From the NCBI GenBank assembly GCA_040005235.1, contig JBDTZG010000014.1, forward strand, positions 32,001 to 96,000: a stretch of 64,000 nt of DNA. The letters run 5' to 3'. The stretch is from Acidobacteriota bacterium (GTDB taxonomy: Bacteria; Acidobacteriota; Thermoanaerobaculia; Multivoradales; UBA5704). Position numbers and translations under genes: made by a program. The notes below the pieces were generated by a model that did not search any database, was not told the DNA's origin, and was given only the letters and a program-made list of their open reading frames with translations. Below are positions 41,301 to 57,300 of this stretch, in pieces; position 1 is the stretch's first letter; each line of letters starts with the position of its first letter.

Positions 41301-44300
41301 CATGATCCCCGCGGCGATCGTGCTCGTGCCGGCTTTTCCTCTTTCGGCCAACGGTAAGGTAGACCGCCGTGCTCTTCCTGTACCAGGCGCCGTGGAGCCC
41401 GGCGAAAGCGACGACTTCGCGACGCCCCGAACGCCTATTGAAGAGATCATCGCCGGCCTCTGGCAGCAACTCCTGGGCCGTCAGCGGGTCGGGCGAAACG
41501 AGAGCTTCTTCCAACTCGGCGGCCATTCCCTGTTGGCCACCCAAGTTCTCTCGCGATTGCGCGACAACCTCGGCGTGGAACTGCCGTTGCGAACCTTTTT
41601 CGAAGGACCGTCGATCGCCGAGCTTGCCGTGGAGGTAGAGCGGGCCCGCGGAGGTCAGCAACAACCTCTGCCGCCCCTCCGACCGATGAAACGCCAGGGC
41701 GTCGTGCCGCTTTCCTTCGCCCAGGAGCGGGTTTGGTTCGTCGAACAGCTCGTGACCGACAACCCCGTCTACAACATTTCAGCCATTCTCGGCCTCTCAG
41801 GGGATCTCGATGTCCTTTCGTTGGCGGCCTCTTTCAGCGCGATCGTGAGACGGCACGAGGCGCTTCGAACCACCTTTCACGAGGTGGCGGGAGAAGCGAT
41901 GCAGCGCGTCGGTCCGGTGACAGCCGTGGCGATACCCGTCATCGATTTAGGCGGTCTTGCCGAGCCGATACGAAGCGTCGAATCGCACCATCTGCAAGTG
42001 GCTGAGGCACGACGCCCGTTCGATTTGGAGCGCGGCCCGTTGCTGCGAGTGCGCCTTTTGGGTCTGGACCGCTACGACAATCTGGTCCTCTTCACGGTTC
42101 ACCACATCGTCTCCGATGCCTGGTCCATGAACATCTTCAGCCGGGAGCTCGCGGCACATTACGCCGCTCTCCGCTCCGGCGCGCAGGATGCGCTTCCGGA
42201 GTTGCCGATTCAGTACGCCGACTATGCCGCTTGGCAGCGTGACTGGCTGACTGACGAAGTCTTGGAACGCGAGCTGTCTTTTCTCGGCGAGCGGCTTACC
42301 GGCCTTCCCAACCTGGACCTGCCGACCGACCGGCCGCGGCCGCCGCTCCAGTCATTCCGTGGCGATCGCCGTTCTCGCGTACTGCCCGCAGACACTCTGG
42401 GCCTCTTGCAGGCTTTAGGCTCAGCTTCGGGAACGACGCCTTTCATGGCGCTCCTCTCGGTCTTCGAAGCGCTGATGGGGCGTTATTCCGGCCAGGAGTC
42501 CGCCGGGATCGGTGTTCCTATCGCGAACCGGCGCCGGACCGAGGTGGAGCCGCTCATCGGGTTCTTCGTCAACCTGCTGGTCCTGCGAATGGACCTCACG
42601 GGGGAGCCGACCTGTCTCGATCTCCTCACGCGGGTTCGCGCCACGGCGCTCGATGCCTTTATGCATCAGGACATCCCTTTCGAGGTCTTGGTGAGTCACC
42701 TTCGGCCGGAGCGCGATCTGAGTCGAAATCCACTGGTGCAAGTGGCGTTTCAACTCCTGCACAGCCCGGGTGGCCAGAGCGTACTTCCGGGACTGACGCT
42801 GACCCGTCCTCAGCAGCAAGGCGCGGTGGTTCGCTTCGACCTCGAGTTGGTCGCCTCCGAGGTCGGAGGTCGACTGCTCACTCATTTGGACTATTGCAGC
42901 GATCTGTTCGAGGAGGCGACGGCGGAACGGATGCTCGGCCACTTCGAGAACCTTGTGACGGCGTTTCTGAGAGATTCTTCGGTCCGGCTTTCCGAGTTGG
43001 AGCTGCTTTCCGCGACCGAGAGAGAGCAACTCCTGCTCGTATGGAACGATCCGAAAGCCGCTTTGCCCGGCGTCGACACTCTGCATGGTCTCTTCGAGGC
43101 GCAGGCGGCGGTTCGGCCCAAAGCGCCCGCAGTGCTTTTCGAGCTCGATGAGATGTCGTACGGCGAGCTTAACGCTGCGGCAAACCGCTTGGCTCACCAC
43201 TTGCGAGGGCTGGGAGTCGGGCCGGAGACGTTGGTCGGCGTGTGGACGGAGCGGTCGGTCGGCTTGATCGTGGGCTTACTCGGTGTGCTCAAAGCCGGCG
43301 GTGCCTACGTCCCTCTCGACCCGGCCAATCCGCGGGACCGCCTGACCTACATGATGGATGACGCCGGGATTTCGGTCCTCTTGGCACAGCGGAGTCTCGT
43401 CGGCGAGCTGCCGCGGTTGGTCAAGGCATTTGTCGATATCGACGATCCGGGTAGCTGGAAGGGTTCGACGGAGAATCCGCCGCCGTCCGCGACCGCCGAA
43501 AACCTTGCCTATGTAATCTATACCTCCGGTTCCACCGGCCAGCCGAAGGGTGTGATGGTTACTCATGGGCAGGTGAGCCGCCTATTCACCGCTACCCGGA
43601 AATGGTTCGGTTTTGACGAGAAGGATACCTGGGCTCTGTTCCATTCCTATGCCTTCGACTTCTCGGTTTGGGAGTTGTGGGGGGCGCTCCTCCATGGAGG
43701 CCGGTTGGTCGTGGTGCCGTATTGGGCGAGTCGTTCGCCCGAGGCCTTCCACAAGTTGGTCGCGGGAGAAGGCGTCACGGTCCTCAACCAGACGCCCTCC
43801 GCCTTCCAGGAGTTGATCCGTAGCGAAGAGGATCTCGGACGGGTCGATGCCGCCGGCGGGCTTCGCCTGGTCATTTTCGGCGGCGAAGCGCTCAATCTGT
43901 CTGCCCTTCGACCGTGGATCGAGCGCCACGGCGAGAGCAAGCCGCTCCTGGTCAACATGTACGGCATAACGGAGACCACGGTTCACGTCACCTACCGCCC
44001 GGTGTCCTCGGTCGATCTCGGTAGCGACAGGAGCCCTATCGGCGTGCCTATTGCGGACCTCCGGGTTCACTTGGTGGACCGTGCATTGCAGCTCGTGCCC
44101 CTCGGGGTTCCAGGAGAGATGCTTGTCGGAGGATCCGGAGTCGCCCGAGGCTACCTTGCGAGACCCGAGCTGACAGCCGGGCGCTTTTTGCCCGACCCGT
44201 TCGAAGCCGCACCCGGGGCGCGCGTGTACCGCTCAGGCGATCTGGCGCGACGCTTGGTGAACGGTGAGCTTGAATATCTGGGCCGGATCGACCACCAGGT

Positions 44301-47300
44301 CAAGATTCGCGGATTCCGTATCGAGCTTGGGGAGATTGCCGCGCGGCTCGCTCAGCATCCTGGGGTGGAAAACGTGCTCGTCGACGTGCACGCCGACCTG
44401 ATCACCGGTCCTCAGATCGTGGCTTATGTAGTGCCATTTCGGGAGCACGGCCTTGGGCCGGAGCTGATTGCGGAGCTACGGAGCCTGGCACGCCAGCACC
44501 TTCCCGACTACATGGTACCTGCCGCCTTTGTGCTCCTCGACGAAATTCCCCTGACCGCCAACGGCAAGGCGGATCGAAAGGCTCTGGCAGCCTTGCGCGT
44601 CGTGACGGAAGAAGCCGTCCATACCGCGCCGCGTACGCCGATGGAGGCGGTGATCGCGGGGATTTGGGGCGAGCTGCTCAACCGGGAGCGGGTCGGTGTC
44701 GAAGAGAGCTTCTTCGACCTGGGAGGGCATTCTCTGCTCGCCTCGCGGGCGATTGGGCGGATCGGCCGAATTTTTCACGTCGACGTCCCTTTGCGAACCA
44801 TCTTCGAAACGCCCACGGTCGGGGGACTCGCGGAGCATGTGAGGCAGTTGTTGGAGGAGGGCGAAACGCCCCCATCGCCGCCGATCGAGCCGGTTCCACG
44901 CGACCGGGATCTGCTGCTTTCCTTTGCCCAGCAGAGGATCTGGTTCCTCGATCAGCTCATGCCGGGCAGCTTCGCCTACAACATGCCGGTGGTGATTCGC
45001 TTCCATGGAGGCCTGGGCATCGAAACCTTTGGCCGCTGCCTGACTGAGCTGGTGGCCCGTCATGAGACGTTGCGCACCACGTTCCAGTTGGCCAATGGGC
45101 AGCCGGTGCAGATCATCGCTCCGCCGTCACCTTGTCGGTTACCGCGGATCGACCTTCGCGCCCTGCCTGCCGACGGACGCAATGCTCTGTCGGTTCGGCT
45201 GGCCCGCCAAGAAGTCGAGCGTCCCTTCGACCTGCGCCGGGGACCGTTGCTGCGGGTTGCGCTGGTGCAGGTCGCTGAGGAGAGGAACCTGCTGATCTTG
45301 GCGATTCACCACATCGTCTGCGACGGCTGGTCCATGGGGATTTTCGTTCGAGAGACGATCGCTCTCTATCGGTCGTTTACCTCCGGCGATCCATCGCCGT
45401 TTACGCCTCTGCCCTTGCAATTCGCGGACTTCTCCGACTGGCAGCGCCGCTGGCTTTCCGGCGCTTCCTTGGAGTCCCATCTCGCTTACTGGCGACGACA
45501 GCTTGGCGACGATCCTCCTCCTCTAGATTTACCCACCGACCGGCCGCGCCCGTTGGCGCAGACGAACAACGGGAAGAGCCTCAGCCTGGCTTTCTCGCCC
45601 GCCCTCACCCTGCAATTGAAGCAGCTCGCCCGGCAAGAGGGAGCGACTCCGTTTCTGGTCCTCCTCTCGGCCTTCAAGGTGCTTCTGGCCCGCTACTCGG
45701 GTCAGAACGATCTCACGGTCGGCGCGCCGGTGGCCGGGCGCAACCGGATCGAGACCGAGGGGATGATCGGGCTGTTCATCAACACCCTGGCGATGCGCAC
45801 GGACCTGGCGGGTCGCCCCAGCTTCCAGGAGGTCGTTAGGCGGGTTCGCGATGTGTCGCTGGCGGCGCTGGCCTACCAGGATCTGCCCTTCGAGAAACTG
45901 GTCGAAGAGTTGCGACCGCGGCGCAGCCTCGACCGTTCGCCCTTCTTCCAAGTGCTGTTCAATCTCCAGAACACGCCGGAAAGCGCGAGCAACCTGCCGG
46001 GGTTGGATTTGGAGTTCATCGACCTTGAGTCGCGGAGCTCCAAGTTCGACCTCTCCCTCTCCCTCTCCGAGCGGCTGGGGACGTTCGGCGGATCGCTGGA
46101 GTTCAATAGCGACCTCTTCGATTCCGCCTCCGCACAGCGGCTCGTCGGCCATCTCGAGACCCTGTTGGGCAACGCCGTTGCGCTGCCCGAGCACCCGTTT
46201 CCCGAGCTCGGAATTCTCCCGTCCTCCGAGCGTCTTCAGCTCGTCCAGGAGGCGAGCGACACCGGGAGCAGGATTCGCCCGTCGTGCCTCCACGAGCTCT
46301 TCGAGGAGCAGGTGCAGTATCGGCCGGACGCATCCGCCGTCGCCTTCCAGGAGGGTTGTCTTACCTACCGAGAGCTCAATGAAAGGGCGGACCAATGGGC
46401 GCGGCGCCTTCGTTCCCTCGGTGTCGGCCCTGAGGTCTATGTCGGGATCTGTGTGGATCGTTCCCTGGAAATGCTGATCGGTTTGCTGGCGGTGCTCAAA
46501 GCCGGCGGTGCCTATCTACCGATGGACCCTTCCTATCCGGCTTCCCGCCTGGCCTACATGATCGAGGACGCCCGGGTCTCGGTCATCCTGACGCGAGGCG
46601 GCGCCTCCTCCTCGTTCCCTGCCTCATCGGCGATCGTCGTCGACCTCGACGAAACGTTGGAGAGAACCGACGATCGGTGGGCCGGTCGACCGATCGGGAT
46701 CGCCACGCCGCAGAACCTTGCGTATGTCATCTACACCTCGGGCTCCACAGGGCAGCCGAAGGGCGTACAGATCTCGCACCTGGCCCTGGTCAACTTCCTC
46801 GATTCCATGGTGGAGCGGCCTGGGATCTCCTCGGGTGAGCGGCTCGGGGCCGTGACTTCGCTCTCCTTCGACATTGCCGGTCTGGAGCTTTTCTTGCCAC
46901 TGCTCGCCGGAGCCGAGGTGGTGGTCGTCGATCGCGAAACCGCATCGGATGCCCTCGGATTGAGACGTCTACTTGCAGATCGAGAGATCACTTTGATGCA
47001 GGCGACGCCCTCCACTTGGCGCATGTTGACCGAGTCGGGATGGGAGGGACGAAGCGGTCTCAAGATCTTGTGCGGCGGCGAAGCTCTCGCCCAAGACCTC
47101 GCCCGATCCTTGGCCGTCCGTGGCGCATCGCTCTGGAACATGTATGGCCCGACCGAGACGACGATCTGGTCGGCGATGTCATCCGTTGGCGTAGCGGATC
47201 GCACGATCTCCCTCGGCCGTCCGATCGCCAACACTCAGATCCATTGCCTGGACCGAGATCTTGATCTGGTTCCCTACAACGTTGCCGGCGAGGTTTACAT

Positions 47301-48138
47301 CGGCGGAGAGGGGCTTTCCCGCGGGTATCTCGGACGCCCCGCGCTCACCGCCGAGCGTTTCATCCCCGATCCTTACGGAACCGCCCCCGGAGCACGTCTC
47401 TACAAGACCGGTGACCTTTCCCGGCGATCGGCTCACGGCGACATCGAGTTCTTGGGGCGCATCGACTTTCAGGTCAAGGTGCGGGGCTATCGAATCGAGC
47501 TCGGCGAGATCGAAGCGGCCCTCCACCAACACCCCGCCGTGCGGGACACGGTCGTACTGGCACGGGAGGATGGCGGCGGCACGCACAGATTGGTGGCCTA
47601 TTGGGTGCCCCGAGAGGGTTTGGATGCCACCGTGAGCGAGCTTTTGGCCCACGTGCGTAGTCACCTTCCGGAGCAAATGGTGCCGGCCACCTTTATCCGG
47701 CTTGAGTCCTTGCCGCTGACTCCGAACGGAAAAGTCGATCGCCAAGCGCTTCCCGATTCGGCCGGCGACAGGCCCGACCTGGCGAGTGCCTATGTTCCGC
47801 CGTCGAACGAGGTGGAGCAGACGATCGTAGGGATTTGGCAGGAAGCACTGCAGGTCGAGCAGATCGGGGTTCACGACAATTTTTTCGACCTCGGCGGTCA
47901 TTCGCTGCTCATCGTCCAGGTGCAGGGTAGCCTGGTCGATGCTTTTCAGGTCGAGGTGCCGGTGATCGAGCTGTTTCGACATTCGACGGTGGCTTCCCTG
48001 GCCGGCTTCATGACTCGGCAGCGGCCGGAAGAGGTACGGGTGGAGGAGGGGCTTGATCGGGCCGAAAAGCGCCGGGCGGCAATGGCGCGCCGAGGCCGCA
48101 CCGCGACCCGTAGCGGCGATGCGGAGGTGGAGCCTTGA
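35314..48138 (+). CDS. ORF3: NRPS I-A(Gln)-T-C-A(Ser)-T-C-A(Thr)-T-C-A(Gly)-T
   Basis: 4274 aa ORF; an alternative ATG start at 35347 is possible. Degenerate N-terminal C-like domain (HSLCGDG). Codes DAWQFGLIDK, DVWHISLVDK, DFWNIGMVHK, DILQLGMIWK. Four GGHS carriers. Confidence 0.96.
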   Translation: MATSSLTGEERMGPAAVNGYRLSPQQERVWSLSKGESEDHFRATCRVRIAGNLDPEAIAAAARRSVERHEILRTVFRKPFGASHPVQVILDEPTLAFRSVDMSGREAGEQRIWLQQLEEEANAPFDLEHGPLLRCILARLAPADSVLYVTLHSLCGDGPTVLNLVDQMGRTHSSAADDEEPLQYADLAEFFNELLESEEMAPGRKYWLERERSGAQDRDLPFDRTNSPLDAPEVRSAAVAMGGALTVHSGDDVRIADASLSTLLLSAWATVLWRLTGRSDLAISVASEGRAYEGLDVALGLFARSLPLSCRLAPEQSFADLMVSLEGEITKATQWQGSFTWKLLEESRALDGIAPTSFFGFSFLEARSTKRYGDLSFVIERLDSMFDSPRLELIGTVTSERLELRVRASSEVCPPAEAQRLLGQLTTLLENAIANPQRRLIDLPSLSPVERHQLLFEFNDTDVLLTAEQRLDKLVLDQCRRTPNRIAVVEGGRFLTFAALDTQAGRIAGELLRRGIETDEVVGVFLERSLEMVVSILGVLKAGAAYLPLAPDYPQDRLAFMIADARPRLIVTQRRLRPNLEPADVPILSLDEEWRAEPFREQSPEHSLGTAGTLAYVIYTSGSTGRPKGVAVSHSAIGNRLLWMQRRFPIGEDDAVVFKTAFTFDASIWELFVPLLAGARVIVARPGGQQDSRYLVRLVLEHRATVLQLVPSMLRIVVEEPELPECTSLLRLFCGGEAFPGELQRRFAACHTASLHNLYGPTEAAIDAAHWACQPGDAPTYLPLGRPLSGVRIYVLDPRVAEPALRGVPGELCIGGRGLARGYLGRPDLTAERFVPDGQSGSWGERLYRTGDRVRFRASGVLEFLGRIDLQIKIRGYRVELGEIEVSLERHQGVAQAAVELRSNEKGDRLIAYVVPRAEAPDAAELRTFLAESLPDYMIPAAVVLLPALPLLPNGKLDRNALQELSETEGEKSREAPQSLTQEVLCGIWSDVLGVDGIGIRDSFFDLGGHSISATQMAARVRAAFGVDLTLRAVFDHPTIVEIAEAIEGLRSESRARSLPPMVMQPRNLPLPLSFAQRRLWFLDQLQPGNAAYNVGLAFSLAGRLSLPILIEALNAVLRRHEVLRTTFARVDGEPMQTIAPELKLTLPLVDLAGLETGRRERIVARLASAVAGLSFDLVRGPLVRALVVRGGAVDHTAVVALHHIVTDGWSTRILLRELAAFYRMKLQRSPMDLPDLPIQYADFAYWQRQWLQGEELNAQLAYWRSRLEALSVLQLPTDRPRPPLQSFRGAAQALVLPARVVESLALIGRRNGASLFMVLVAAFSCLLARLSGSRDIAIGVPIAGRSRPEVEGLIGLFVNTLVLRADFSGKPGLGAVIERIREAVLGASASQYLPFEQLVESLQLERDLSQNPLFQVMLILQNLPQNEIEIEGLALRTLPVKTGTAKLDLSLDLMETANGLVGAFEYNSDLFEPATIERWARHFTTLLESGLESPDRSFSELDMLSEGERGQILERWNETGVTYRLLTLHQLIEEQVARTPEAPALVFEGERISYSEMDRRAELWARHLRNLGIGPEMPVGICAERSMEMVIGMLAILKAGGAYLPLDPSLPSKRLAFMMRDAGLRLVLTQERLLGRLPKDWEGRYLCLDGEVPTDTGINAPTVVDLANLAYIIYTSGSTGFPKGVMISHAAIANRLLWMQNAYRLSSEDRVLQKTPYTFDVSVWEFFWPLLVGATLVIARPEGHMDASYLASLIAAEKITTLHFVPSMLQVFLEEPKAAECQSLRLIICSGEALSVELANRCLSRFSPLGVELHNLYGPTEASVDVSFWECRPAERLPTTPIGRPIANTRLYVVDLEGMPVPVGVPGELLIGGAGLGRGYLGRAEQTAERFVPDPFGVDPGGRLYRTGDLSCFLADGDIEFRGRIDFQVKIRGFRIELGEIESVLERHAGVRQAVAVAVPIAGDPRLVAYVVSEEESAPTQAELRTHLAANLPDYMIPAAIVLVPAFPLSANGKVDRRALPVPGAVEPGESDDFATPRTPIEEIIAGLWQQLLGRQRVGRNESFFQLGGHSLLATQVLSRLRDNLGVELPLRTFFEGPSIAELAVEVERARGGQQQPLPPLRPMKRQGVVPLSFAQERVWFVEQLVTDNPVYNISAILGLSGDLDVLSLAASFSAIVRRHEALRTTFHEVAGEAMQRVGPVTAVAIPVIDLGGLAEPIRSVESHHLQVAEARRPFDLERGPLLRVRLLGLDRYDNLVLFTVHHIVSDAWSMNIFSRELAAHYAALRSGAQDALPELPIQYADYAAWQRDWLTDEVLERELSFLGERLTGLPNLDLPTDRPRPPLQSFRGDRRSRVLPADTLGLLQALGSASGTTPFMALLSVFEALMGRYSGQESAGIGVPIANRRRTEVEPLIGFFVNLLVLRMDLTGEPTCLDLLTRVRATALDAFMHQDIPFEVLVSHLRPERDLSRNPLVQVAFQLLHSPGGQSVLPGLTLTRPQQQGAVVRFDLELVASEVGGRLLTHLDYCSDLFEEATAERMLGHFENLVTAFLRDSSVRLSELELLSATEREQLLLVWNDPKAALPGVDTLHGLFEAQAAVRPKAPAVLFELDEMSYGELNAAANRLAHHLRGLGVGPETLVGVWTERSVGLIVGLLGVLKAGGAYVPLDPANPRDRLTYMMDDAGISVLLAQRSLVGELPRLVKAFVDIDDPGSWKGSTENPPPSATAENLAYVIYTSGSTGQPKGVMVTHGQVSRLFTATRKWFGFDEKDTWALFHSYAFDFSVWELWGALLHGGRLVVVPYWASRSPEAFHKLVAGEGVTVLNQTPSAFQELIRSEEDLGRVDAAGGLRLVIFGGEALNLSALRPWIERHGESKPLLVNMYGITETTVHVTYRPVSSVDLGSDRSPIGVPIADLRVHLVDRALQLVPLGVPGEMLVGGSGVARGYLARPELTAGRFLPDPFEAAPGARVYRSGDLARRLVNGELEYLGRIDHQVKIRGFRIELGEIAARLAQHPGVENVLVDVHADLITGPQIVAYVVPFREHGLGPELIAELRSLARQHLPDYMVPAAFVLLDEIPLTANGKADRKALAALRVVTEEAVHTAPRTPMEAVIAGIWGELLNRERVGVEESFFDLGGHSLLASRAIGRIGRIFHVDVPLRTIFETPTVGGLAEHVRQLLEEGETPPSPPIEPVPRDRDLLLSFAQQRIWFLDQLMPGSFAYNMPVVIRFHGGLGIETFGRCLTELVARHETLRTTFQLANGQPVQIIAPPSPCRLPRIDLRALPADGRNALSVRLARQEVERPFDLRRGPLLRVALVQVAEERNLLILAIHHIVCDGWSMGIFVRETIALYRSFTSGDPSPFTPLPLQFADFSDWQRRWLSGASLESHLAYWRRQLGDDPPPLDLPTDRPRPLAQTNNGKSLSLAFSPALTLQLKQLARQEGATPFLVLLSAFKVLLARYSGQNDLTVGAPVAGRNRIETEGMIGLFINTLAMRTDLAGRPSFQEVVRRVRDVSLAALAYQDLPFEKLVEELRPRRSLDRSPFFQVLFNLQNTPESASNLPGLDLEFIDLESRSSKFDLSLSLSERLGTFGGSLEFNSDLFDSASAQRLVGHLETLLGNAVALPEHPFPELGILPSSERLQLVQEASDTGSRIRPSCLHELFEEQVQYRPDASAVAFQEGCLTYRELNERADQWARRLRSLGVGPEVYVGICVDRSLEMLIGLLAVLKAGGAYLPMDPSYPASRLAYMIEDARVSVILTRGGASSSFPASSAIVVDLDETLERTDDRWAGRPIGIATPQNLAYVIYTSGSTGQPKGVQISHLALVNFLDSMVERPGISSGERLGAVTSLSFDIAGLELFLPLLAGAEVVVVDRETASDALGLRRLLADREITLMQATPSTWRMLTESGWEGRSGLKILCGGEALAQDLARSLAVRGASLWNMYGPTETTIWSAMSSVGVADRTISLGRPIANTQIHCLDRDLDLVPYNVAGEVYIGGEGLSRGYLGRPALTAERFIPDPYGTAPGARLYKTGDLSRRSAHGDIEFLGRIDFQVKVRGYRIELGEIEAALHQHPAVRDTVVLAREDGGGTHRLVAYWVPREGLDATVSELLAHVRSHLPEQMVPATFIRLESLPLTPNGKVDRQALPDSAGDRPDLASAYVPPSNEVEQTIVGIWQEALQVEQIGVHDNFFDLGGHSLLIVQVQGSLVDAFQVEVPVIELFRHSTVASLAGFMTRQRPEEVRVEEGLDRAEKRRAAMARRGRTATRSGDAEVEP
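35370..36690 (+). other. Interface-like (inactive C) domain 1
   Basis: GYRLSPQQERVW start and RHEILRT. The active site reads LHSLCGDG (35764), lacking the catalytic second His. Confidence 0.78.
48123..48127 (+). promoter_or_regulatory. Shine-Dalgarno site for ORF4 (translationally coupled)
   Basis: GGAGG 7 nt upstream of TTG 48135. The start overlaps the ORF3 stop (TTGA). Confidence 0.7.
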
Positions 48139-51100
48139 ACCAGGAGGGCGGAAACGAGATCGCTGTCATCGGGTTGGCGGGCCGATTCCCCGGTGCGTCT
48201 TCGGTGGATGAGCTGTGGTCCAACCTATGCGCAGGGATCGAGTCGATTTCCGTTTTCTCCGAAGACGACCTGAACGCTGCCGGCATTTCCGCCGAGCTGC
48301 TGCGCCTTCCCAACTACGTTCGAGCGAAAGGCGTCTTGGTCGACGTCGATCTCTTCGATTACGGATTTTTCGCCATCGGGGCCCGCATCGCCCAGGTGAT
48401 GGACCCGCAGCACCGAATTTTCCTCGAATGCTCTTGGGAGGCATTGGAATCCGCCGGTTACGACGCGGAGAGGTTCTCCGGAGCCGTCGGCGTGTTTGCC
48501 GGATGCGGGCTGAACAGCTATTTCTTCCAATGCGTGGCACCCAACTTCCAACTCGTGGCCTCGTTGGGTGAGCTGCAGACGACCTTGGTCAACGATAAGG
48601 ACTTCTTGGCTACGCAGGTTTCCTACAAGCTGGGTCTTCGCGGTCCGAGCGTAACCGTCCAGACCGCTTGCTCGACCAGTCTGGTAGCGGTCCATATTGC
48701 GTGCCAGAGCTTGCTGATGGGCGAGTGCGACATGGCACTGGCGGGGGGTGTCTCGGTGAAGTTTCCCCACCAGGCCGGTTACCTGTATCAGCCCGAGTCC
48801 ATCCTGTCTCCCGATGGCCATTGTCGTCCGTTCGATGCCGCTGCCAATGGAACGGTCAACGGTTCAGGAGCCGGTGTTGTCGTGCTGCGGCGCCTCGCCG
48901 ACGCTTTAGCGGCAGGAGACACCGTGCTCGCCGTGATCAAGGGCTCGGCGGTCAACAATGACGGCTCTCAGAAAGCGGGATTCACAGCACCGAGTCTGGA
49001 TGGCCAGGCCAAGGTCATCGCCGAGGCGATGGCGGTCGCCGGTGTCGAGCCCGAGAGCATCTCCTTCGTGGAAGGCCACGGCACCGGCACTGCGGTGGGG
49101 GACCCCATCGAAGTGGCCGCCCTGAGCCAAGCCTTCGCCGCCACTGCGAAGACCGACCGAAAAGGGTTCTGTGCCTTAGGCTCGATCAAGGGGAACCTCG
49201 GTCACTTAGACGCCGCTTCAGGTATCGCGGGGCTGATCAAAGCGGTTTTGGCACTGCGCTACGGCAAGCTGCCTCCGAGCCTTCATTTCGAACGGCCCAA
49301 TCCGGCGATCGATCTGGCCGAGAGCCCGTTCTTCGTCAACGATCGGCTCGCCGAGTGGCCCACGGACCGTGGTCCTTTGCGGGCAGGGGTGAGCTCCTTC
49401 GGTCTCGGCGGAACCAATGCCCATGTGGTCCTTGAGGAGGCACCGCTTGCGGCGCCGACCACTCCGCCGGTTCGCGCGCCCCAGCTCCTCGTCCTTTCGG
49501 CACGGACCGCCACGGCGCTGGAGCGGATGGCCGGCCGACTCGCCGAGTCCATGAGGCAGGGTTCGGACCCCTCCGCGGTCCTCTCCGCAATCCCCTCCCC
49601 AGGCTCCTCCCCGATACCGGCCGAGCTCCCGGAGATCGCTTTTACCTTGCAGACGGGCCGCAAGGTCTTCGAGTACCGCCGCACTCTGGTCTGTCGCGAT
49701 CGCGAAGAGGCGGTCGCGGCTCTTTCCGCCGGCATCGGTCGGACGTTGCGGGACTCGGCGCGCAACCGCCCGGTCGTCTTTCTCTTCCCCGGGCAGGGGG
49801 AGCAAAGGATCGGAATGGGGGCCGGCCTCTACGCGACCGAGCCGGTGTTCCAAGCCGAAGTGGACCGCGCTTGCGACCTGCTCAAGCCCCACCTGGGATT
49901 CGATCTGCGCGACGTGCTCTACCCCGCACCGGCGGCCGCCGAGGAGATGGCGCTGCGGCTGACCCAGACAGCTGTGGCGCAACCCGCACTGTTCGTCGTC
50001 GAGCATGCTTTGGCTCAGCTTTGGATGAGCTGGGGCATCGTTCCGCAGGCCACGATCGGGCATAGCCTGGGTGAGTACGTCGCCGCCTGCTTGGGAGGTG
50101 CCCTCTCGCTTGCCGACGCTTTGGCCCTCGTCGCTTTCCGCGGTCAGCTCATGCAGTCCGTTTCGCCCGGCGCGATGCTGGCCGTGCGCCTCACTCCCGA
50201 AGCGGTGCGAAAGAAGCTCGCCGAACCCCTGGGCGAAGGCCTCGCCTTGGCGGCCGTCAACGGAGCCGAGCGCTGCGTGGTCTCGGGACCCCTCGACGCC
50301 ATCCTTGCACTGGAAGGCGATTGGTCCTCCGACGGAGTCCCTTGCCGCCGGCTGGAGACCTCCCACGCTTTCCACTCGGCCATGATGGAACCGGTCCTCG
50401 ACGCCTTTCGCAGACGGCTGGAGGGGATTCGTTTCGGCAAGGTGCAAATCCCCTGGCTATCGAACCTTACCGGCGGCTGGATCACGCAGTCGGAGGCTTC
50501 GGATGCGGCCTATTGGTGCGCCCATCTTCGCCAGACGGTCCGCTTCGGCGACGGGGTCCGCGAGCTGCTGGGAGAAGATCGAATCTTTCTGGAGGTCGGT
50601 CCGGGAGCCGTTCTGGGCAACCTGGTCAAGCAGGCTGCGGGGAAATCGGCCGTGCCGGTCCTCCGCTCGCTGCCTCCGGGGCGCGAGGAGCGATCGGACG
50701 AGCCGACCGCGCTCCTGGAGACCCTTGGCGACCTGTGGCGCCACGGCGCCCGAATCTCATGGAACGCTTTCCACAAAGGCACGCGTCGGCGCCGGGTTCT
50801 GTTGCCCACCTACCCCTTCGAGCGCGAGAAGGCATGGCTTGAACCCCCAGCCGCCGGCCCGATGAAGATTCTGGAGCCCTCAGTGCAGAATCCAGTCCTA
50901 ATTTCACCCGTTCCCGTCTCTGCTTCGAGGTTGCCGGAGATCCTGGCCGGTCTCAGCTCGGTCGTTGGCGACCTGATCGGTGCCCGCCCCGATCAGATCG
51001 ACCCTTCCATACCTTTCCTGGACGTAGGAGTGGACTCCCTGCTCCTGATCCAAGCGAGTCAGGCGATTCATCGGCGTTTCGGGATCAAGATTTCCCTGGC

Positions 51101-54100
51101 CGAGCTGCTTGAGAAGTACGTTACGGTGCAGGCGGTGGCGGAGTATCTCGACCGCGAGATGCCGCCGTCGCCGGCCGTCGCCGAACCCTTGGCCGTGGCA
51201 GACCTTCCTCCCGCCGCCGCAGGACCGGCACCGTCAGACGATGACCTTCCCGCTGCCGGGACTGTTTCGTCCGAGCATCTCGACCGCATCATCAACCGGC
51301 AGCTTGAGCTGATGGCGCGCCAGCTGGAGCTCCTGCGCGGGCCGGGACGGGCCGCCGCCCCGGCATCTCGCCCGTCGGAGCCGGCTCCCATCGCCTCCCC
51401 GATCTCTCAGGCTGCCGCTCCCGAAATGCGGCACCCGTTTGCCGCCAAACCGATCCTTACCGAGGCCCCCGGCACCTTCACGGAACCCCAGCGCCGGCAT
51501 TTGGACGACCTCATTTCGCGCCATACCCGGCGCACCGCGGAGTCCAAGCGCCGGACCCAGATGCATCGGCCCCACCTGGCCGAAAATCGGGCTTCGGTGG
51601 GGTTCCGGATGCTCTGGAAGGAGATGGTCTACCCCTTGATCGCCGAACGCTCGGAGGGCGGCCGGTTGTGGGATGTGGACGGCAACGAATACGTCGACAT
51701 CGCGATGGGATTCGGAGTTCACCTTTTCGGCCACTCGCCGGCTTTCGTGGTCGAAGCGCTGAACCACCAGATACGGCGTGGGTTGCAGCTCGGGCCGCAA
51801 TCGGACCTGGCCGGCGAAGTCGCCGCCCTCCTCTGCGAAGCGACCGGCATGGAGCGAGCGACCTTCGCCAACTCGGGCACCGAGGCCGTGATGACCGCGA
51901 TGCGGGTGGCGCGTGCCGTCACCGGCCGAAATCGGATTGCAATATTCAACGGCTCCTACCATGGTTCCTTCGACGGTACCCAGGTTCGCCGAGTGATGCG
52001 CGATGGGCTGGCTCAGCCTGTACCGAGCGCGCCAGGCGTACCGCCGGGAATGGTGGAGGACCTCCTGGTCCTCGACTACGATCGTCCAGAATCCCTGGAG
52101 GAGATCCGTCGTCAGGGGCGGGATCTCGCCGCGGTCTTGGTCGAGCCGGTGCAGAGTCGACGGCCGGATCTGCAGCCGCGAGAGTTCCTTCTGGAATTGC
52201 GGCGGATCACCGAGGAGAGCGGAACCGTTCTGATTTTCGACGATGTCATCCAGGGATTTCGCTGCCACACAGGGGGCAGCCAGGCCGTCTTCGGCGTCCG
52301 TGCAGACCTTGCGGTTTATGGCAAGGTGGTGGGTGGCGGCCTGCCGATTGGAGTCCTGGCCGGCACGTCGAAGGTGATGGATGCCATCGATGGCGGCTAT
52401 TGGAGTTTCGGCGACGACTCCTATCCGCGCGCCGACAAGACATTTTTCGCCGGAACGTTCTGCAAACACCCGCTGAGCATGGCCGCTGCGCTTGCGGTCC
52501 TTCGCCATCTTCGGGAGGAGGGGCCGGCTCTCCAAGAGCGCATCAACGATCGTACGGCGGCCCTCGCCGCCGAGCTGAACGCGTTCTTTTCCGCCGAGCG
52601 TTTTCCGGTCGAGGTCGTTCACTTCGGCTCCCTGTTTCGCTTCCAGTTCAATCGCGACCAGGATCTCGGCGATCTGTTCTTTTTCCACCTTCTCGAACAT
52701 GGCGTCTATACGTGGGAAGGCCGGACCTGCTTCCTCTCGACCGCCCATACCGAAAAGGACCTGGAAATCCTGGTCGATGCGGTTCGGCGCAGTGTCGCCG
52801 ACCTTCGAGCCGGAGGATTTTTCATCCCGGCGGAGCCGCTTCCGGTTCCGTTGGAAGCCCTGGTGGAGCGCCTGCCCCTCACCGCCGCCCAGCGTGGGAT
52901 CTGGTCGCTCTGTCAGCTCGATCCCGCGGCTTCAGGTGCCTTCAACGAAAGCATCGTCTGCCGCTTCGACGGGCCGATCGAATTGGGGGGCCTGCGCCGC
53001 GCCCTGCAAAGGGTCGTCGATCGCCACGACGTGCTGCGAGTCACCTTCGATTCCGATGGCGAGCATCAGGTGGTCCATTCGCGCATTGGGGTCGGCATTC
53101 CCTTGATCGACTTGCAGGTACTGCCGTCGGAGAGACGGACGATGCGCGAAGCCGATCTCGTGAGCGGTGGCCAAGGGCGAGAAGTTTTCGATCTCGAGCA
53201 CGGACCGTTGCTGCGAGCTCGGCTCTACCATTTCGAGCCTGACCGTCATCTTCTCGACCTGACGGTTCATCACTTGGTGACGGACGGCTGGTCCCTGGGT
53301 CTACTGCTGAGCGAAATTCGCCAGCTTTACGTCGGCGAGCTGGAGGGCGCGGCGGTCGAGCTGCCGGCCCCTACGCCGTTCAGGTGGTATGTCGAGCTGC
53401 AGGATCAACGCCTCGGGAGCGCCGGCCACGAGCATGTGGAAGCGTATTGGCTCGCTCGGTTCGGCGGTGCGATACCCGAGCTCAACCTTCCTTGCGACTT
53501 GCCGCGGCCGTCGCTCAAGAGCTACCGGGGTGCCCGGCTTTCGCGTCAAATCGGCGACGACGCGCTGTTGCCGGCTCTGCGGACGCTATGCCGAGATCAG
53601 CGCTGCACCCTTTTCATGCTGCTGCTCAGCGCCTTCGAGGCCTTGATGCAGCATCTCACCGGTGCGGACGACCTGGTCGTCGGCATCACCCTGGCCGAGC
53701 AACCGAGTCTCGACTCCCAGACGCTGATGGGCTACTGCTTGAACGTGCTGCCGCTGCGGGTTCCCGCAGAGGTCGATCTCCCGTTCCGCGAGCTCTTGGC
53801 GCGGACCCGGCACGGCCTCGCCGAGGCTCAGGAGAATCAGGCCTACGACATCGCCCGCCTAGTCAAAAAACTCGAATTGCGAGGTGACCGAAGCCGGAGC
53901 CCGATCTTTACCGTCGGGTTCAACCATGAGCGAGGTGAGGTTTGGCATGCTCCGGGCGGCTTGCGGGTAGAGCAGGTGTCGAGCCCGAACGTGGCGGCAC
54001 AGCTCGATCTCTCCTGGATGACCGTCGAGATGAGCGGTTCGCTGACCGTCCATTGCATCTACAGCACCGACCTGTTCGTCGAGGAGCGGGTCGTCGGCTG

Positions 54101-54293
54101 GATCGAGATCTACGAACGGTTGTTGGGAATTGTCGTTCGGGAACCGGACATCCGATTGAGCGACCTCGGCGAAATCCTGGTCCGGCAAGCGGCGGAAAGG
54201 CTCGAACGCGATCGGGTAGTCCGACGCTCGTCCAGCCTGTCGAAGCTGCGACGCACGGAACGCAAGCCGCTCGTTTCGGCACAGGGCTCGTGA
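48135..54293 (+). CDS. ORF4: PKS-NRPS hybrid KS-AT-ACP-aminotransferase-C
   Basis: 2052 aa ORF. KS NDKD...VQTACSTS/HGTGT/NLGHL; AT GHSLG and HAFHS; ACP GVDSLL (51027); class III PLP aminotransferase motifs DVDGNEYVD, NSGTEA, FDDVIQGFR, YGKVVGGGLP; terminal C HHLVTDGWS. Confidence 0.96.
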   Translation: MNQEGGNEIAVIGLAGRFPGASSVDELWSNLCAGIESISVFSEDDLNAAGISAELLRLPNYVRAKGVLVDVDLFDYGFFAIGARIAQVMDPQHRIFLECSWEALESAGYDAERFSGAVGVFAGCGLNSYFFQCVAPNFQLVASLGELQTTLVNDKDFLATQVSYKLGLRGPSVTVQTACSTSLVAVHIACQSLLMGECDMALAGGVSVKFPHQAGYLYQPESILSPDGHCRPFDAAANGTVNGSGAGVVVLRRLADALAAGDTVLAVIKGSAVNNDGSQKAGFTAPSLDGQAKVIAEAMAVAGVEPESISFVEGHGTGTAVGDPIEVAALSQAFAATAKTDRKGFCALGSIKGNLGHLDAASGIAGLIKAVLALRYGKLPPSLHFERPNPAIDLAESPFFVNDRLAEWPTDRGPLRAGVSSFGLGGTNAHVVLEEAPLAAPTTPPVRAPQLLVLSARTATALERMAGRLAESMRQGSDPSAVLSAIPSPGSSPIPAELPEIAFTLQTGRKVFEYRRTLVCRDREEAVAALSAGIGRTLRDSARNRPVVFLFPGQGEQRIGMGAGLYATEPVFQAEVDRACDLLKPHLGFDLRDVLYPAPAAAEEMALRLTQTAVAQPALFVVEHALAQLWMSWGIVPQATIGHSLGEYVAACLGGALSLADALALVAFRGQLMQSVSPGAMLAVRLTPEAVRKKLAEPLGEGLALAAVNGAERCVVSGPLDAILALEGDWSSDGVPCRRLETSHAFHSAMMEPVLDAFRRRLEGIRFGKVQIPWLSNLTGGWITQSEASDAAYWCAHLRQTVRFGDGVRELLGEDRIFLEVGPGAVLGNLVKQAAGKSAVPVLRSLPPGREERSDEPTALLETLGDLWRHGARISWNAFHKGTRRRRVLLPTYPFEREKAWLEPPAAGPMKILEPSVQNPVLISPVPVSASRLPEILAGLSSVVGDLIGARPDQIDPSIPFLDVGVDSLLLIQASQAIHRRFGIKISLAELLEKYVTVQAVAEYLDREMPPSPAVAEPLAVADLPPAAAGPAPSDDDLPAAGTVSSEHLDRIINRQLELMARQLELLRGPGRAAAPASRPSEPAPIASPISQAAAPEMRHPFAAKPILTEAPGTFTEPQRRHLDDLISRHTRRTAESKRRTQMHRPHLAENRASVGFRMLWKEMVYPLIAERSEGGRLWDVDGNEYVDIAMGFGVHLFGHSPAFVVEALNHQIRRGLQLGPQSDLAGEVAALLCEATGMERATFANSGTEAVMTAMRVARAVTGRNRIAIFNGSYHGSFDGTQVRRVMRDGLAQPVPSAPGVPPGMVEDLLVLDYDRPESLEEIRRQGRDLAAVLVEPVQSRRPDLQPREFLLELRRITEESGTVLIFDDVIQGFRCHTGGSQAVFGVRADLAVYGKVVGGGLPIGVLAGTSKVMDAIDGGYWSFGDDSYPRADKTFFAGTFCKHPLSMAAALAVLRHLREEGPALQERINDRTAALAAELNAFFSAERFPVEVVHFGSLFRFQFNRDQDLGDLFFFHLLEHGVYTWEGRTCFLSTAHTEKDLEILVDAVRRSVADLRAGGFFIPAEPLPVPLEALVERLPLTAAQRGIWSLCQLDPAASGAFNESIVCRFDGPIELGGLRRALQRVVDRHDVLRVTFDSDGEHQVVHSRIGVGIPLIDLQVLPSERRTMREADLVSGGQGREVFDLEHGPLLRARLYHFEPDRHLLDLTVHHLVTDGWSLGLLLSEIRQLYVGELEGAAVELPAPTPFRWYVELQDQRLGSAGHEHVEAYWLARFGGAIPELNLPCDLPRPSLKSYRGARLSRQIGDDALLPALRTLCRDQRCTLFMLLLSAFEALMQHLTGADDLVVGITLAEQPSLDSQTLMGYCLNVLPLRVPAEVDLPFRELLARTRHGLAEAQENQAYDIARLVKKLELRGDRSRSPIFTVGFNHERGEVWHAPGGLRVEQVSSPNVAAQLDLSWMTVEMSGSLTVHCIYSTDLFVEERVVGWIEIYERLLGIVVREPDIRLSDLGEILVRQAAERLERDRVVRRSSSLSKLRRTERKPLVSAQGS
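51600..52810 (+). other. Embedded class III aminotransferase (AMT) domain
   Basis: GFGVHLFGH, SYHG, VEPVQS, PLP-binding Lys at 52323 (YGK), TFFAGTF. Same type as the AMT domains of McyE and MycA. Confidence 0.9.
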
Positions 54294-54300
54294 CCCGCTC

Positions 54301-57300
54301 ATGCCGGTGATCGAATCTTTCCGTCTCTCTCCTCAACAGGAGCGCCTTTGGCACCTCGGCCCCTCGTCGGTCTTTCGAGCGCAGTGCGCGGTGAATCTCG
54401 TGGGCCCGCTCGATCGCGCGGTCCTCGCGAGGGCCGTACGCGACGTCGTCCGGCGGCATGAAATCCTCCGTACCCGATTCGGCCTTTTCGGCGGCACGCT
54501 GGCGGCGCAGGCGCCCGGGGAAAGCGAGGATAGAGCTTGGGTCGAGCTCGATTTGCGCGCCGCCAACCCGCAAGACGGGACGAATCGCATCGCCGGAGCG
54601 TACGCCACCCAAGCGGAGACGCCGCCGGACCTCGGCGCCGGATCGATGCTCGACGTGCAGCTGGTGATTCTGGCGGAGGATCGACACCAGCTGTTGCTGC
54701 GCCTCCCCTCGCTGTGCGCCGACCGCCGAAGCCTTCGTAACCTGGTCCTGGCGATCGCGCGTTCCTATCAGGCCGCGATGGGCGACGGTGGTACCGGGGA
54801 TCAAGCCGCCGCAATGCAGTACATCGAAATCGCGCAGTGGCAGGCGGAGCTGTTGGAATCGACGGATGGCGAAAACGAAAGGCGGCTCTGGCAGGAGAGA
54901 AGTCAGGCGGTCCAGAGCCTCCGACTTCCCCTCGGAGACCCAAGCTCGCCGGAAGTGGAGTCTCATCCCGAGTTGACGACTTTTGAGCTGGGGGAGGGGC
55001 GGATGGCCGGCCTGCGCGCTCTCGCGGATCGAATCGGCATCCCCATGTCGGCGCTTTTTCTCGCTACGTTCTCAGCGCTCCTGGCTCGCCTGGAGGAGTC
55101 GGGAACGACCGCCCTGGGTCTCGTGGCGGAAGGGCGCACCTTCGACGATCTTGCCGACGCTCTCGGGCCGTTCAGCAAGTCCCTGCCTCTCGTCTTCGGC
55201 ACGGAGCAAGGCACCCTTCCCTTCGACCGGTTCGCCCAGCGGGTGCGGAAGGACATGGACGAGGCGGCCGCCATTCAGGAGTTTCTCGAACCCGCCTTCC
55301 TTCCCCTTCGATTCGAGTGGGTCGAGGAGCCGCCGCAGGCGGTCGCGGCGGGGGTGACTTTCGTGATCGACCGCGAGTCGGTCATCACGGATCGCTTCGT
55401 CCTTCAACTCTCCTGTCACGGCGATTCCAGGGGATACTGCGAGCTGCTTTTCGATCCCTCGCGGATGGACCGGACCGAAGCCGAGCGACTGGCAGAGCGC
55501 TTTCGCTCCCTTCTCGACAGCGCTTTGGCCGAACCGTTGAAAACCCTGCGCGAGCTGAACGCCGTGGGGGAGAGGGAGCGAGCGTTCTTGCTCCGGGGTT
55601 TGAATCCGGAGCGGGTTGTCTATCCGGACGCCGATCGATGCCTCCATGAGCTGTTCGAGGAGCAGGTGCGCCGGCGCCCCGGCGCTCCCGCCCTGGTCTT
55701 TGGCGGCACTTCCCTGACCTATGCCCAGCTCGATGCAAAATCGTCGGATCTTGCCGCCCGCCTGGCGAAACGAGGTGCAGGTCCCGAGGTGTTGGTCGGG
55801 ATTTGCATGGAACGTTCGTTGGAGCTGGTAATCGGACTTCTCGGCATACTCAAAGCGGGCGCGGCCTACGTCCCGCTCGAGCCCTCCTATCCGAAAGAGC
55901 GGCTGGAGGCGATGCTGGAGGACCTTGCCGCGACCGGCCGCCTTCCTTTGATTGTCACCCGGGAGTCGCACCTGGCGGCGCTCCCGGAGCGGCCCATAGC
56001 GGACTCCGGTCTACTCCTCCTTTCGGCCGAAGAGCCCGTGGCTCAAGAACGGCATCCATCCGTGCGGATGAATCCCGGGCATCTGGCCTATTCGATCTTC
56101 ACCTCGGGCTCCACTGGCCGTCCCAAAGGGGCGATGAACTCGCACCGCGGCGTGGTCAACCGCCTGCTATGGATGCAGCAAGTCTACGGTCTTTCCCCGC
56201 AGGACCGCGTCTTACAAAAGACGCCGTTTAGTTTCGACGTTTCGGTTTGGGAGCTCTTTTGGCCTTTGATCTGCGGTGCCACCTTGGTGGTTGCAGAGCC
56301 GGATCGACACAAGGACAGCTCCTATCTGATCCGCATCTTGCGCGAGGAGAGGATCACCACGGTCCATTTCGTCCCTTCGCTGCTGCGCATTTTTCTCGAA
56401 GAGCCGACGGTGGCCTCGTGCGGGTCGCTTCATCGGGTCATCTGTAGCGGCGAGGCGCTGCCACCCGATTTGGTGAATCGCTTCTTCGATTGTTTCCGTG
56501 GCGAGCAGGCACCCGAGCTCCACAATCTTTACGGGCCTACGGAGGCGGCGGTCGATGTGACCTGGTGGCGATGCGCTTCCGGAGAAGAAGTGACGCCGAT
56601 CGGCACGCCGGTGGCCAACACCTGCATCTACCTGCTCGACCCGCCGGCAATGGCTTTGCGCCCGGTGCCCTTCGGCGCGCCGGGCGAGATCTGCATCGGC
56701 GGAGTCCAGGTCGGGCGGGGTTACCTGGGACGTCCCGACCTTACAGCCGAGCGTTTTCTGCCCGATCCGTTCTCTCGCGAGCCGGGCGACCGTCTGTATC
56801 GTACCGGCGACGTGGCGCGATACCTGCGCGACGGAGCCATCGAGTACCTTGGCCGCCTCGACGATCAGGTGAAGATTCGGGGGGTCCGGATCGAGCTCGG
56901 CGAGATCGAGTCCGTCCTGCGCCGGCACGAGGGCGTGCTCGACGCGGCGGTGGTGGCGCGAGATGTCGCTCCGGGCGACCGGCGGCTCATCGCCTACGCG
57001 GTGACCCGCGAAACGACCGCTCCGACCGTCGGCGAGTTGCGCTCCTATCTCGAGCGGCTGCTTCCCCAGGCCATGGTCCCTTCCCAGATCGTTCGATTGG
57101 CTGCGTTGCCGCTCACGCCCAGCGGCAAGGTGAATCGTCGAGCCTTGCCGCTTCCCGAACCGGAACGACCGGATCTGGAAGTCGCTTTCGTCGCTCCGCG
57201 GACCGCCGCCGAGAAATTGCTGGCGGGAATCTGGGCGGACCTCTTGCGCGTGAGCGACATCGGTGTCTTCGACGACTTCTTCCAGCTTGGAGGCGACTCC

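Follow-up and report, generated by a model that had tools for sequence, protein, structure and literature searches.

What does an assembly line make when a polyketide synthase (PKS) module with an embedded aminotransferase (AMT) stands behind a glycine module in mid-chain, and what becomes of the new amine? This question is raised by a 64,000-nucleotide (nt) stretch of contig JBDTZG010000014.1 from an Acidobacteriota bacterium (hereafter the window), in which six megasynthase genes lie on the same strand at a GC content of about 64%; the sources named among their best matches are Thermoanaerobaculia and Acidobacteriota. The third gene, open reading frame 3 (ORF3), encodes a nonribosomal peptide synthetase (NRPS) and is followed by ORF4, which encodes KS-AT-ACP-AMT-C. 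According to the original prediction, this AMT acts on a peptidyl-glycyl chain to give an internal 3,4-diaminobutyrate. We consider it likely that a 3,4-diaminobutanoyl unit is placed within the chain after at least 13 units. The prediction thus stands as a reading of a KS of the peptidyl carrier protein (PCP) type, of coupled genes and of an AMT that looks functional, with the caveat of three rare residues.

The domain order at the junction is as predicted. Pfam resolves the final module of ORF3 as C-A-T, and its A domain has the code DILQLGMIWK, which we take to be a glycine code. In ORF4, Pfam places KS at residues 7-475, AT at 548-856, ACP at 940-1005, Aminotran_3 at 1166-1527 and C at 1580-2011, the AMT domain sitting between ACP and C. 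No ketoreductase (KR), dehydratase (DH), enoylreductase (ER) or methyltransferase (MT) is among its 10 Pfam families, and the AT carries HAFH, presumably the malonyl motif. These features confirm a Gly-code module directly upstream of a reduction-free malonyl KS-AT-ACP-AMT-C. In the C-domain tree, the C domain of ORF4 groups with others that follow an AMT and lies in neither the LCL nor the DCL clade. ORF4 is 93.6% identical to its orthologue P0001 overall (AMT 94.9%, AT 95.2%, C 93.3%, linkers 81-89%).

The two genes are also coupled. The TTG start codon of ORF4 overlaps the stop codon of ORF3 and lies 9 nt past GGAGG, a ribosome-binding site, and P0001 begins at the same residue. ORF3 ends in an Arg-rich tail that presumably acts in docking; similar tails stand before KS at three loci of the scan described below (L025, L036 and L064). 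In the simplest reading, the chain is transferred colinearly from the T domain of ORF3 to the KS of ORF4. A KS tree of 47 rows was built from 34 of the 46 PCP-fed loci of that scan (near-copies and cut loci of this set being omitted), seven of the eight acyl-fed loci, four FAAL-fused matches, ORF2 and ORF4. All 11 acyl-ACP-fed rows fall on one side, and all 34 PCP-fed rows fall on the other together with ORF4 and ORF2 (SH-aLRT 100). By this grouping, the KS of ORF4 appears to be PCP-accepting, of the NRPS-to-PKS hybrid type.

The prediction that the embedded pyridoxal phosphate (PLP)-dependent aminotransferase resembles that of MycA was borne out. Its top matches in PDB are the MycA AMT structures 6kfu and 6kfm (E ~1e-158), GSA mutases reaching only 1e-58. 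In a quick tree of AMT domains, ORF4 belongs to a clade of 26 rows (support 100) with Bacillus FAAL-type loci and seven mid-chain loci. The PLP-binding Lys (K1397) and the pyridine-binding Asp (D1369) are intact. Counterparts of the PLP-site residues named in PMC3870968 are apparent by motif (N1246, E1250, Y1275, D1369, V1371, K1397 and T1441). ORF4 deviates at two of the 127 positions whose conservation among 181 relatives is 90% or more, the median of the relatives being four. Judged by its residues, the AMT looks functional, subject to the three rare ones weighed below.

The order of the domains, their motifs, the clade of the KS and the coupling of the genes form the observed base of the following route, for which we infer the substrates, colinearity, AMT activity and amine donor. 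ORF3 would add glycine as at least the 13th unit, and its T domain would pass the peptidyl-glycine chain to the KS of ORF4, which would condense it with malonyl-ACP to give peptidyl-NH-CH2-CO-CH2-CO-ACP. No KR being present, the AMT would transaminate C3, probably with Gln, the amine donor of MycA according to PMC3870968. The product would be an N4-peptidyl-3,4-diaminobutanoyl thioester, to be joined by the C domain of ORF4 to Ser on ORF5. Because the backbone would run through N4 and C1, the C3 amine would be free on leaving ORF4, and staying free would be its default fate. The predicted count of about 13 units ahead of ORF4 is matched in the window by 12 A domains and one PKS module. It does not give the exact total, since the first C domain of ORF1, LCL-like in the C-domain tree, needs a donor from beyond the window; 13 is thus a minimum.

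Several points weigh against this reading. The A-domain codes are predictions. A second T-to-KS junction, from ORF1 to ORF2, would in principle permit cross-talk, and the KS domains of ORF4 and ORF2 are 60.7% identical. With two such similar junctions, the chain that enters ORF4 might come from ORF1, or be delivered by an acyl carrier that lies beyond the window. The flavipulchrin PKS-AMT, described in PMC12819058, extends a fatty acyl group that a Cs domain loads as starter, suggesting that such a KS may not need an aminoacyl donor. However, ORF3 ends in a T domain that has no other acceptor and its stop overlaps the ORF4 start, while the KS of ORF4 lies outside the acyl-ACP clade; a non-colinear input is accordingly regarded as very improbable. 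The AMT itself has three substitutions, all near the PLP Asp or Lys in sequence: E1370D is seen in one of 301 relatives, T1373Q in none of the 301 and T1394V in four of the 301. ORF4 and its orthologue read DDVIQGFR where the family consensus is DE[VIM]xTGFR, and position 1370 is Glu in 300 of the 301 relatives. As P0001 carries the same three residues, the substitutions are real, and they may compensate each other. If they left the AMT inactive or weak, the unit would stay 4-amino-3-oxobutanoyl and might close to a tetramate or a hemiaminal. This outcome is nevertheless unlikely: the catalytic Lys and Asp are kept, the departures are fewer than in the median relative, and the orthologue has the same three residues in an AMT conserved to the same degree as the AT. 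Finally, neither a characterised product nor biochemistry was found for any aminoacyl-fed AMT in literature searches that covered few subscription journals, which is weak evidence of absence. The characterised AMT cases found, MycA, chitinimine (PMC13291983) and flavipulchrin (PMC12819058), are all of the starter type, and PMC4247773, PMC8252469 and PMC10510592 held nothing bearing on the question.

Features of the window, with positions counted from its first nucleotide
Feature	Positions	Strand	Character	Basis
ORF1	151..16293	+	NRPS, (C-A-T) x5
ORF2	16309..35310	+	KS-AT-(KR remnant)-ACP-Cy-A(Cys)-MT-T, C-A(Cys-like)-MT-T, C-A(Gln)-T-E-C(DCL)
ORF3	35314..48138	+	His-less C-like domain-A(Gln)-T, C-A(Ser)-T, C-A(Thr)-T, C-A(Gly)-T
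C of Gly module	44908..46242	+	LCL-type	Pfam, C tree
A of Gly module	46300..47733	+	code DILQLGMIWK (Gly)	Pfam, code reading
T of Gly module	47818..48009	+	donor to ORF4; GGHS with Ser at 47902	Pfam, motif
C-terminal tail of ORF3	48046..48138	+	Arg-rich, putative T-to-KS docking helix
ORF4	48135..54293	+	KS-AT-ACP-AMT-C, 2052 aa
KS of ORF4	48153..49559	+	PCP-accepting clade; NDKD and VQTACSTS motifs; C179, H315, H357
AT of ORF4	49776..50702	+	GHSLG and HAFH motifs, S644, malonyl
ACP of ORF4	50952..51149	+	Ser968
AMT of ORF4	51468..52829	+	class III PLP aminotransferase, MycA type	D1369, K1397 intact
C of ORF4	52872..54167	+	HHLVTDG (H1713)	Pfam, tree
ORF5 (acceptor module)	54301..58926	+	His-less C-like domain, A(Ser), T(GGDSI), DCL-clade C, no E
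His-less C-like domain of ORF5	54307-55599	+
DCL-clade C of ORF5	57508-58824	+		best PDB match McyB; C tree
ORF6	58938..64000	+	probable TTG start at 58938; His-less C-like domain-A(Asn)-T-C-A..., runs past window end

The original prediction treated an aminoacyl or peptidyl donor to such a module as more unusual than it is. From a scan of genome contigs 80 loci were kept, as a sample and not a census; L066-L080, which are GSA-mutase-like with 30-39% identity and shorter matches, were left out, and the remaining 65 loci were classed by hand. Among these 65 loci listed, KS-AT-ACP-AMT is PCP-fed in 46: A-T feeds it directly in 28, a C-type domain stands ahead of the feeding A-T or T in 14, and in four the feeding T has a cut or odd upstream part. 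The others comprise eight acyl-fed loci, eight stand-alone AMTs and three cut loci. The PCP-fed loci span Acidobacteriota, Cyanobacteriota, Bacteroidota, Gemmatimonadota, Verrucomicrobiota and Pseudomonadota, and in Longimicrobium (L042) the entire mid-chain arrangement is contained within one ORF. At the loci listed, 36 upstream codes could be read, and none of them is for Gly; Thr, Pro, Val/Phe, Ser, Asp and Asn are among them. Similarly, no fused A(Gly)-T-KS-AT-ACP-AMT protein is found among the 120 near-length and 120 longer matches listed, the fused cases having Pro, Thr or other codes. In a redundant set of 301 AMT-bearing sequences, the upstream KS motif is of the hybrid type in 89, of the acyl type in 95 and of neither in 117. 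A tblastn search of plasmids gave 154 records (102 from Ralstonia), and none of the 40 listed names a product. The layout is already in print as a prediction: Table 2 of PMC3870968 (2013) has Salinisphaera F7QBN5, C-A-CP-KS-AT-CP-PLP1-C-A-CP with the predicted product Gly-Mal-Nrp, the one case with Gly listed there; its supplement contains the string A-CP-KS-AT-CP-PLP1 21 times and may list more Gly cases. The system would work like a MycA-type AMT module, in a layout that is common in orphan clusters and uncommon with Gly.

Attempts to read the donor type from the AMT itself were unsuccessful. Comparison of PCP-fed with acyl-fed AMTs (89 versus 95 redundant sequences) gave only six weak positions, and the best of these, W1161, is also W in MycA, so that no signature is claimed. 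PCP-fed AMTs do not form a single clade, 11 changes being required for starter-like rows and eight for mid-chain rows in the quick tree. The AMT structure that AlphaFold predicted from a five-row alignment was too poor to be used (mean pLDDT 56). Other arrangements occur among the relatives. In the cyanobacterial loci L006, L020 and L021 (~4100-11440), stand-alone AMT genes come directly after a His-less C-A(Asp)-T gene, and seven of the eight stand-alone AMTs belong to one clade. At L003 (1-6621) and L007 (1-8529), the A domain just ahead of KS is without the core TSGSTG loop and looks inactive. Ten proteins (P0242, P0244, P0258, P0259, P0277, P0280, P0304, P0316, P0344 and P0348) have two C domains after the AMT, in the order KS(hybrid motif)-AT-ACP-AMT-C-C-A(DIWE-type code)-T-E. 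Nine others (P0052, P0059, P0078, P0081, P0104, P0105, P0109, P0116 and P0119) hold A(Pro-like code)-T-KS-AT-ACP-AMT-C-T-TE in one protein of ~2950 aa, a family that offers a compact test case for aminoacyl-fed AMT chemistry.

Among known systems, the AMT of MycA (mycosubtilin, iturin family) is like that of ORF4 in its ACP-AMT-C order at a PKS-to-NRPS junction, and the ORF4 AMT shares a clade with the Bacillus FAAL-type loci L032 and L043. MycA differs in that a fatty acyl starter from FAAL-ACP enters an acyl-clade KS, whereas the KS of ORF4 belongs to the PCP clade and comes after 13 units or more. The beta-amino-lipid starter systems of the iturin/MycA type have a FAAL-ACP or PKS donor and an acyl-clade KS; here A(Gly)-T serves as donor to a PCP-clade KS, and on account of these differences ORF4 does not belong to that family. 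McyE (microcystin), the flavipulchrin PKS-AMT and ChtnA (chitinimine) likewise combine KS-AT-ACP with an AMT to pass a beta-amino thioester to NRPS modules. Their product is a beta-amino acid built on a lipid or polyketide starter, whereas ORF4 would give a beta,gamma-diamino acid within a peptide. A T domain feeding a PCP-clade KS with an AMT is shared with Salinisphaera F7QBN5, Longimicrobium L042, Acidobacteriota L003 and L007, and Nostoc L035. Such A-T-KS-AT-ACP-AMT clusters differ in being mostly short lines in which the amino acid is seemingly the starter, with no Gly among the sampled codes. We know of no product of these clusters. Gly-malonyl-KR modules give 4-amino-3-hydroxybutanoyl or statine-type units, for example in microsclerodermin. 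They resemble the present system in extending a mid-chain amino acid by malonate, but their KR reduces the ketone, whereas ORF4 has an AMT instead.

The free C3 amine had been proposed as the branch point of a lariat. In this case, a downstream thioesterase (TE) would acylate it with the chain terminus to form a macrolactam whose tail would comprise 13 units or more. The amine set by the AMT closes the ring in iturins and microcystins. The same is described for flavipulchrin, also a starter-type system, in PMC12819058. On the other hand, Pfam finds no TE in ORF1-6 within the window, beyond which the line continues, and the hydroxyls of Ser10, Thr11 and the Ser that follows ORF4 compete as ring-closing nucleophiles, being sites for a lactone. 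In zeamine and fabclavine, the corresponding amines stay free. Their AMT domains help to build a polyamino-alcohol chain (PMC13291983). A lariat is possible, although we hold it doubtful.

Another fate is offered by the NocB-like layout of ORF5, which the original prediction overlooked. The T domain (GGDSI) of this Ser-code module is followed directly by a DCL-clade C domain with no E domain between, and the orthologue P0121 (91% identical) has the same layout. An assembly artefact was ruled out as the source of this missing E domain or of the odd AMT motif, both being shared by P0121 and P0001. In NocB of nocardicin biosynthesis, Ser is dehydrated and then an amine adds by means of T4 (GGDSI) and M5C (a DCL domain), and in FR900359 a DCL domain follows N-Me-Dha (PMC10880069). 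By analogy, the DCL domain of ORF5 might dehydrate the next Ser to dehydroalanine, to which the C3 amine would add (7-endo aza-Michael) to give a 1,4-diazepan-5-one within the backbone; alternatively, the thiol of the upstream Cys-like residue could add. However, PMC10880069 also reports that NocB needs H790 of HHHxxxDG, and ORF5 reads FHHLVMDG and has an extra His-less C-like domain at its N-terminus. Simple loss of an E domain also accounts for the layout. The H790-equivalent position varies in E-preceded DCL domains as well (F in three of 18), and E-less DCL domains did not emerge as a dedicated dehydrating clade (five rows with five changes, among 43 matches). Such a local ring closure seems improbable, and equally so that ORF4 and ORF5 form a two-module ring-building cassette that makes the diazepanone on the assembly line. 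Persistence of the internal 3,4-diaminobutanoyl unit with a free amine is kept as the default.

The His-less C-like domain of ORF5 falls into one group (support 100) with its counterparts in ORF3, in ORF6 and in nine relatives; these may be what are called 'interface domains'. At five such loci for which the intervening gene was printed, it is TauD-like by eye in four (L002, L003, L007 and L035) and methyltransferase-like in one (L023). Among the 120 ORF5 matches listed, there are 24 pairs of a His-less C-like domain and an A domain, and a Ser code occurs only in the orthologue. The domain of ORF5 is only 85.6% identical to that of the orthologue, which fits a relic. The three in the window (35360-36660, 54307-55599 and 58990-60280) precede Gln, Ser and Asn codes. 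No hydroxylase gene lies between the ORFs of the window; beta-hydroxy-Gln and beta-hydroxy-Asn are possible at these modules.

The upstream modules have features of their own. The codes of ORF1 presumably read Ala, Asp, Ala and Ala, followed by an aminoadipate-reductase-like A domain. This last domain, in module 5 (14350-16000), has the code DPRHFVYRAK when read by eye, and its top match is the aminoadipate reductase family TIGR03443 with a score below the cut-off; the side-chain carboxyl of aminoadipate or Glu may be activated here before the PKS step of ORF2. In ORF2, a KR-like remnant (18970-20200) has no Pfam or NCBIfam match, and the first PKS unit therefore probably keeps its ketone beside a thiazoline. 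The ORF4 AMT could conceivably act in trans on this ketone. Next come Cy-A(Cys)-MT-T and C-A(Cys-like)-MT-T (20500-29300), whose embedded methyltransferases are 47% identical, an order that suggests a methylated thiazoline and, next to it, an N-methyl-Cys-like residue whose thiol is free. Nine shadow ORFs (eight antisense, one in an alternative frame) were considered as genes and rejected, none of them matching Pfam.

All the parts of the proposed route are known, and the finding would be a moderate surprise to a specialist. If it is true, engineers of NRPSs would gain a means of introducing a branching amine within the chain, and an in vitro test of ORF4, or of a relative that is shorter, would show which chemistry many orphan clusters perform. 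The module would then represent a way for an assembly line to make beta,gamma-diamino acids, the amino analogues of statine-type units.

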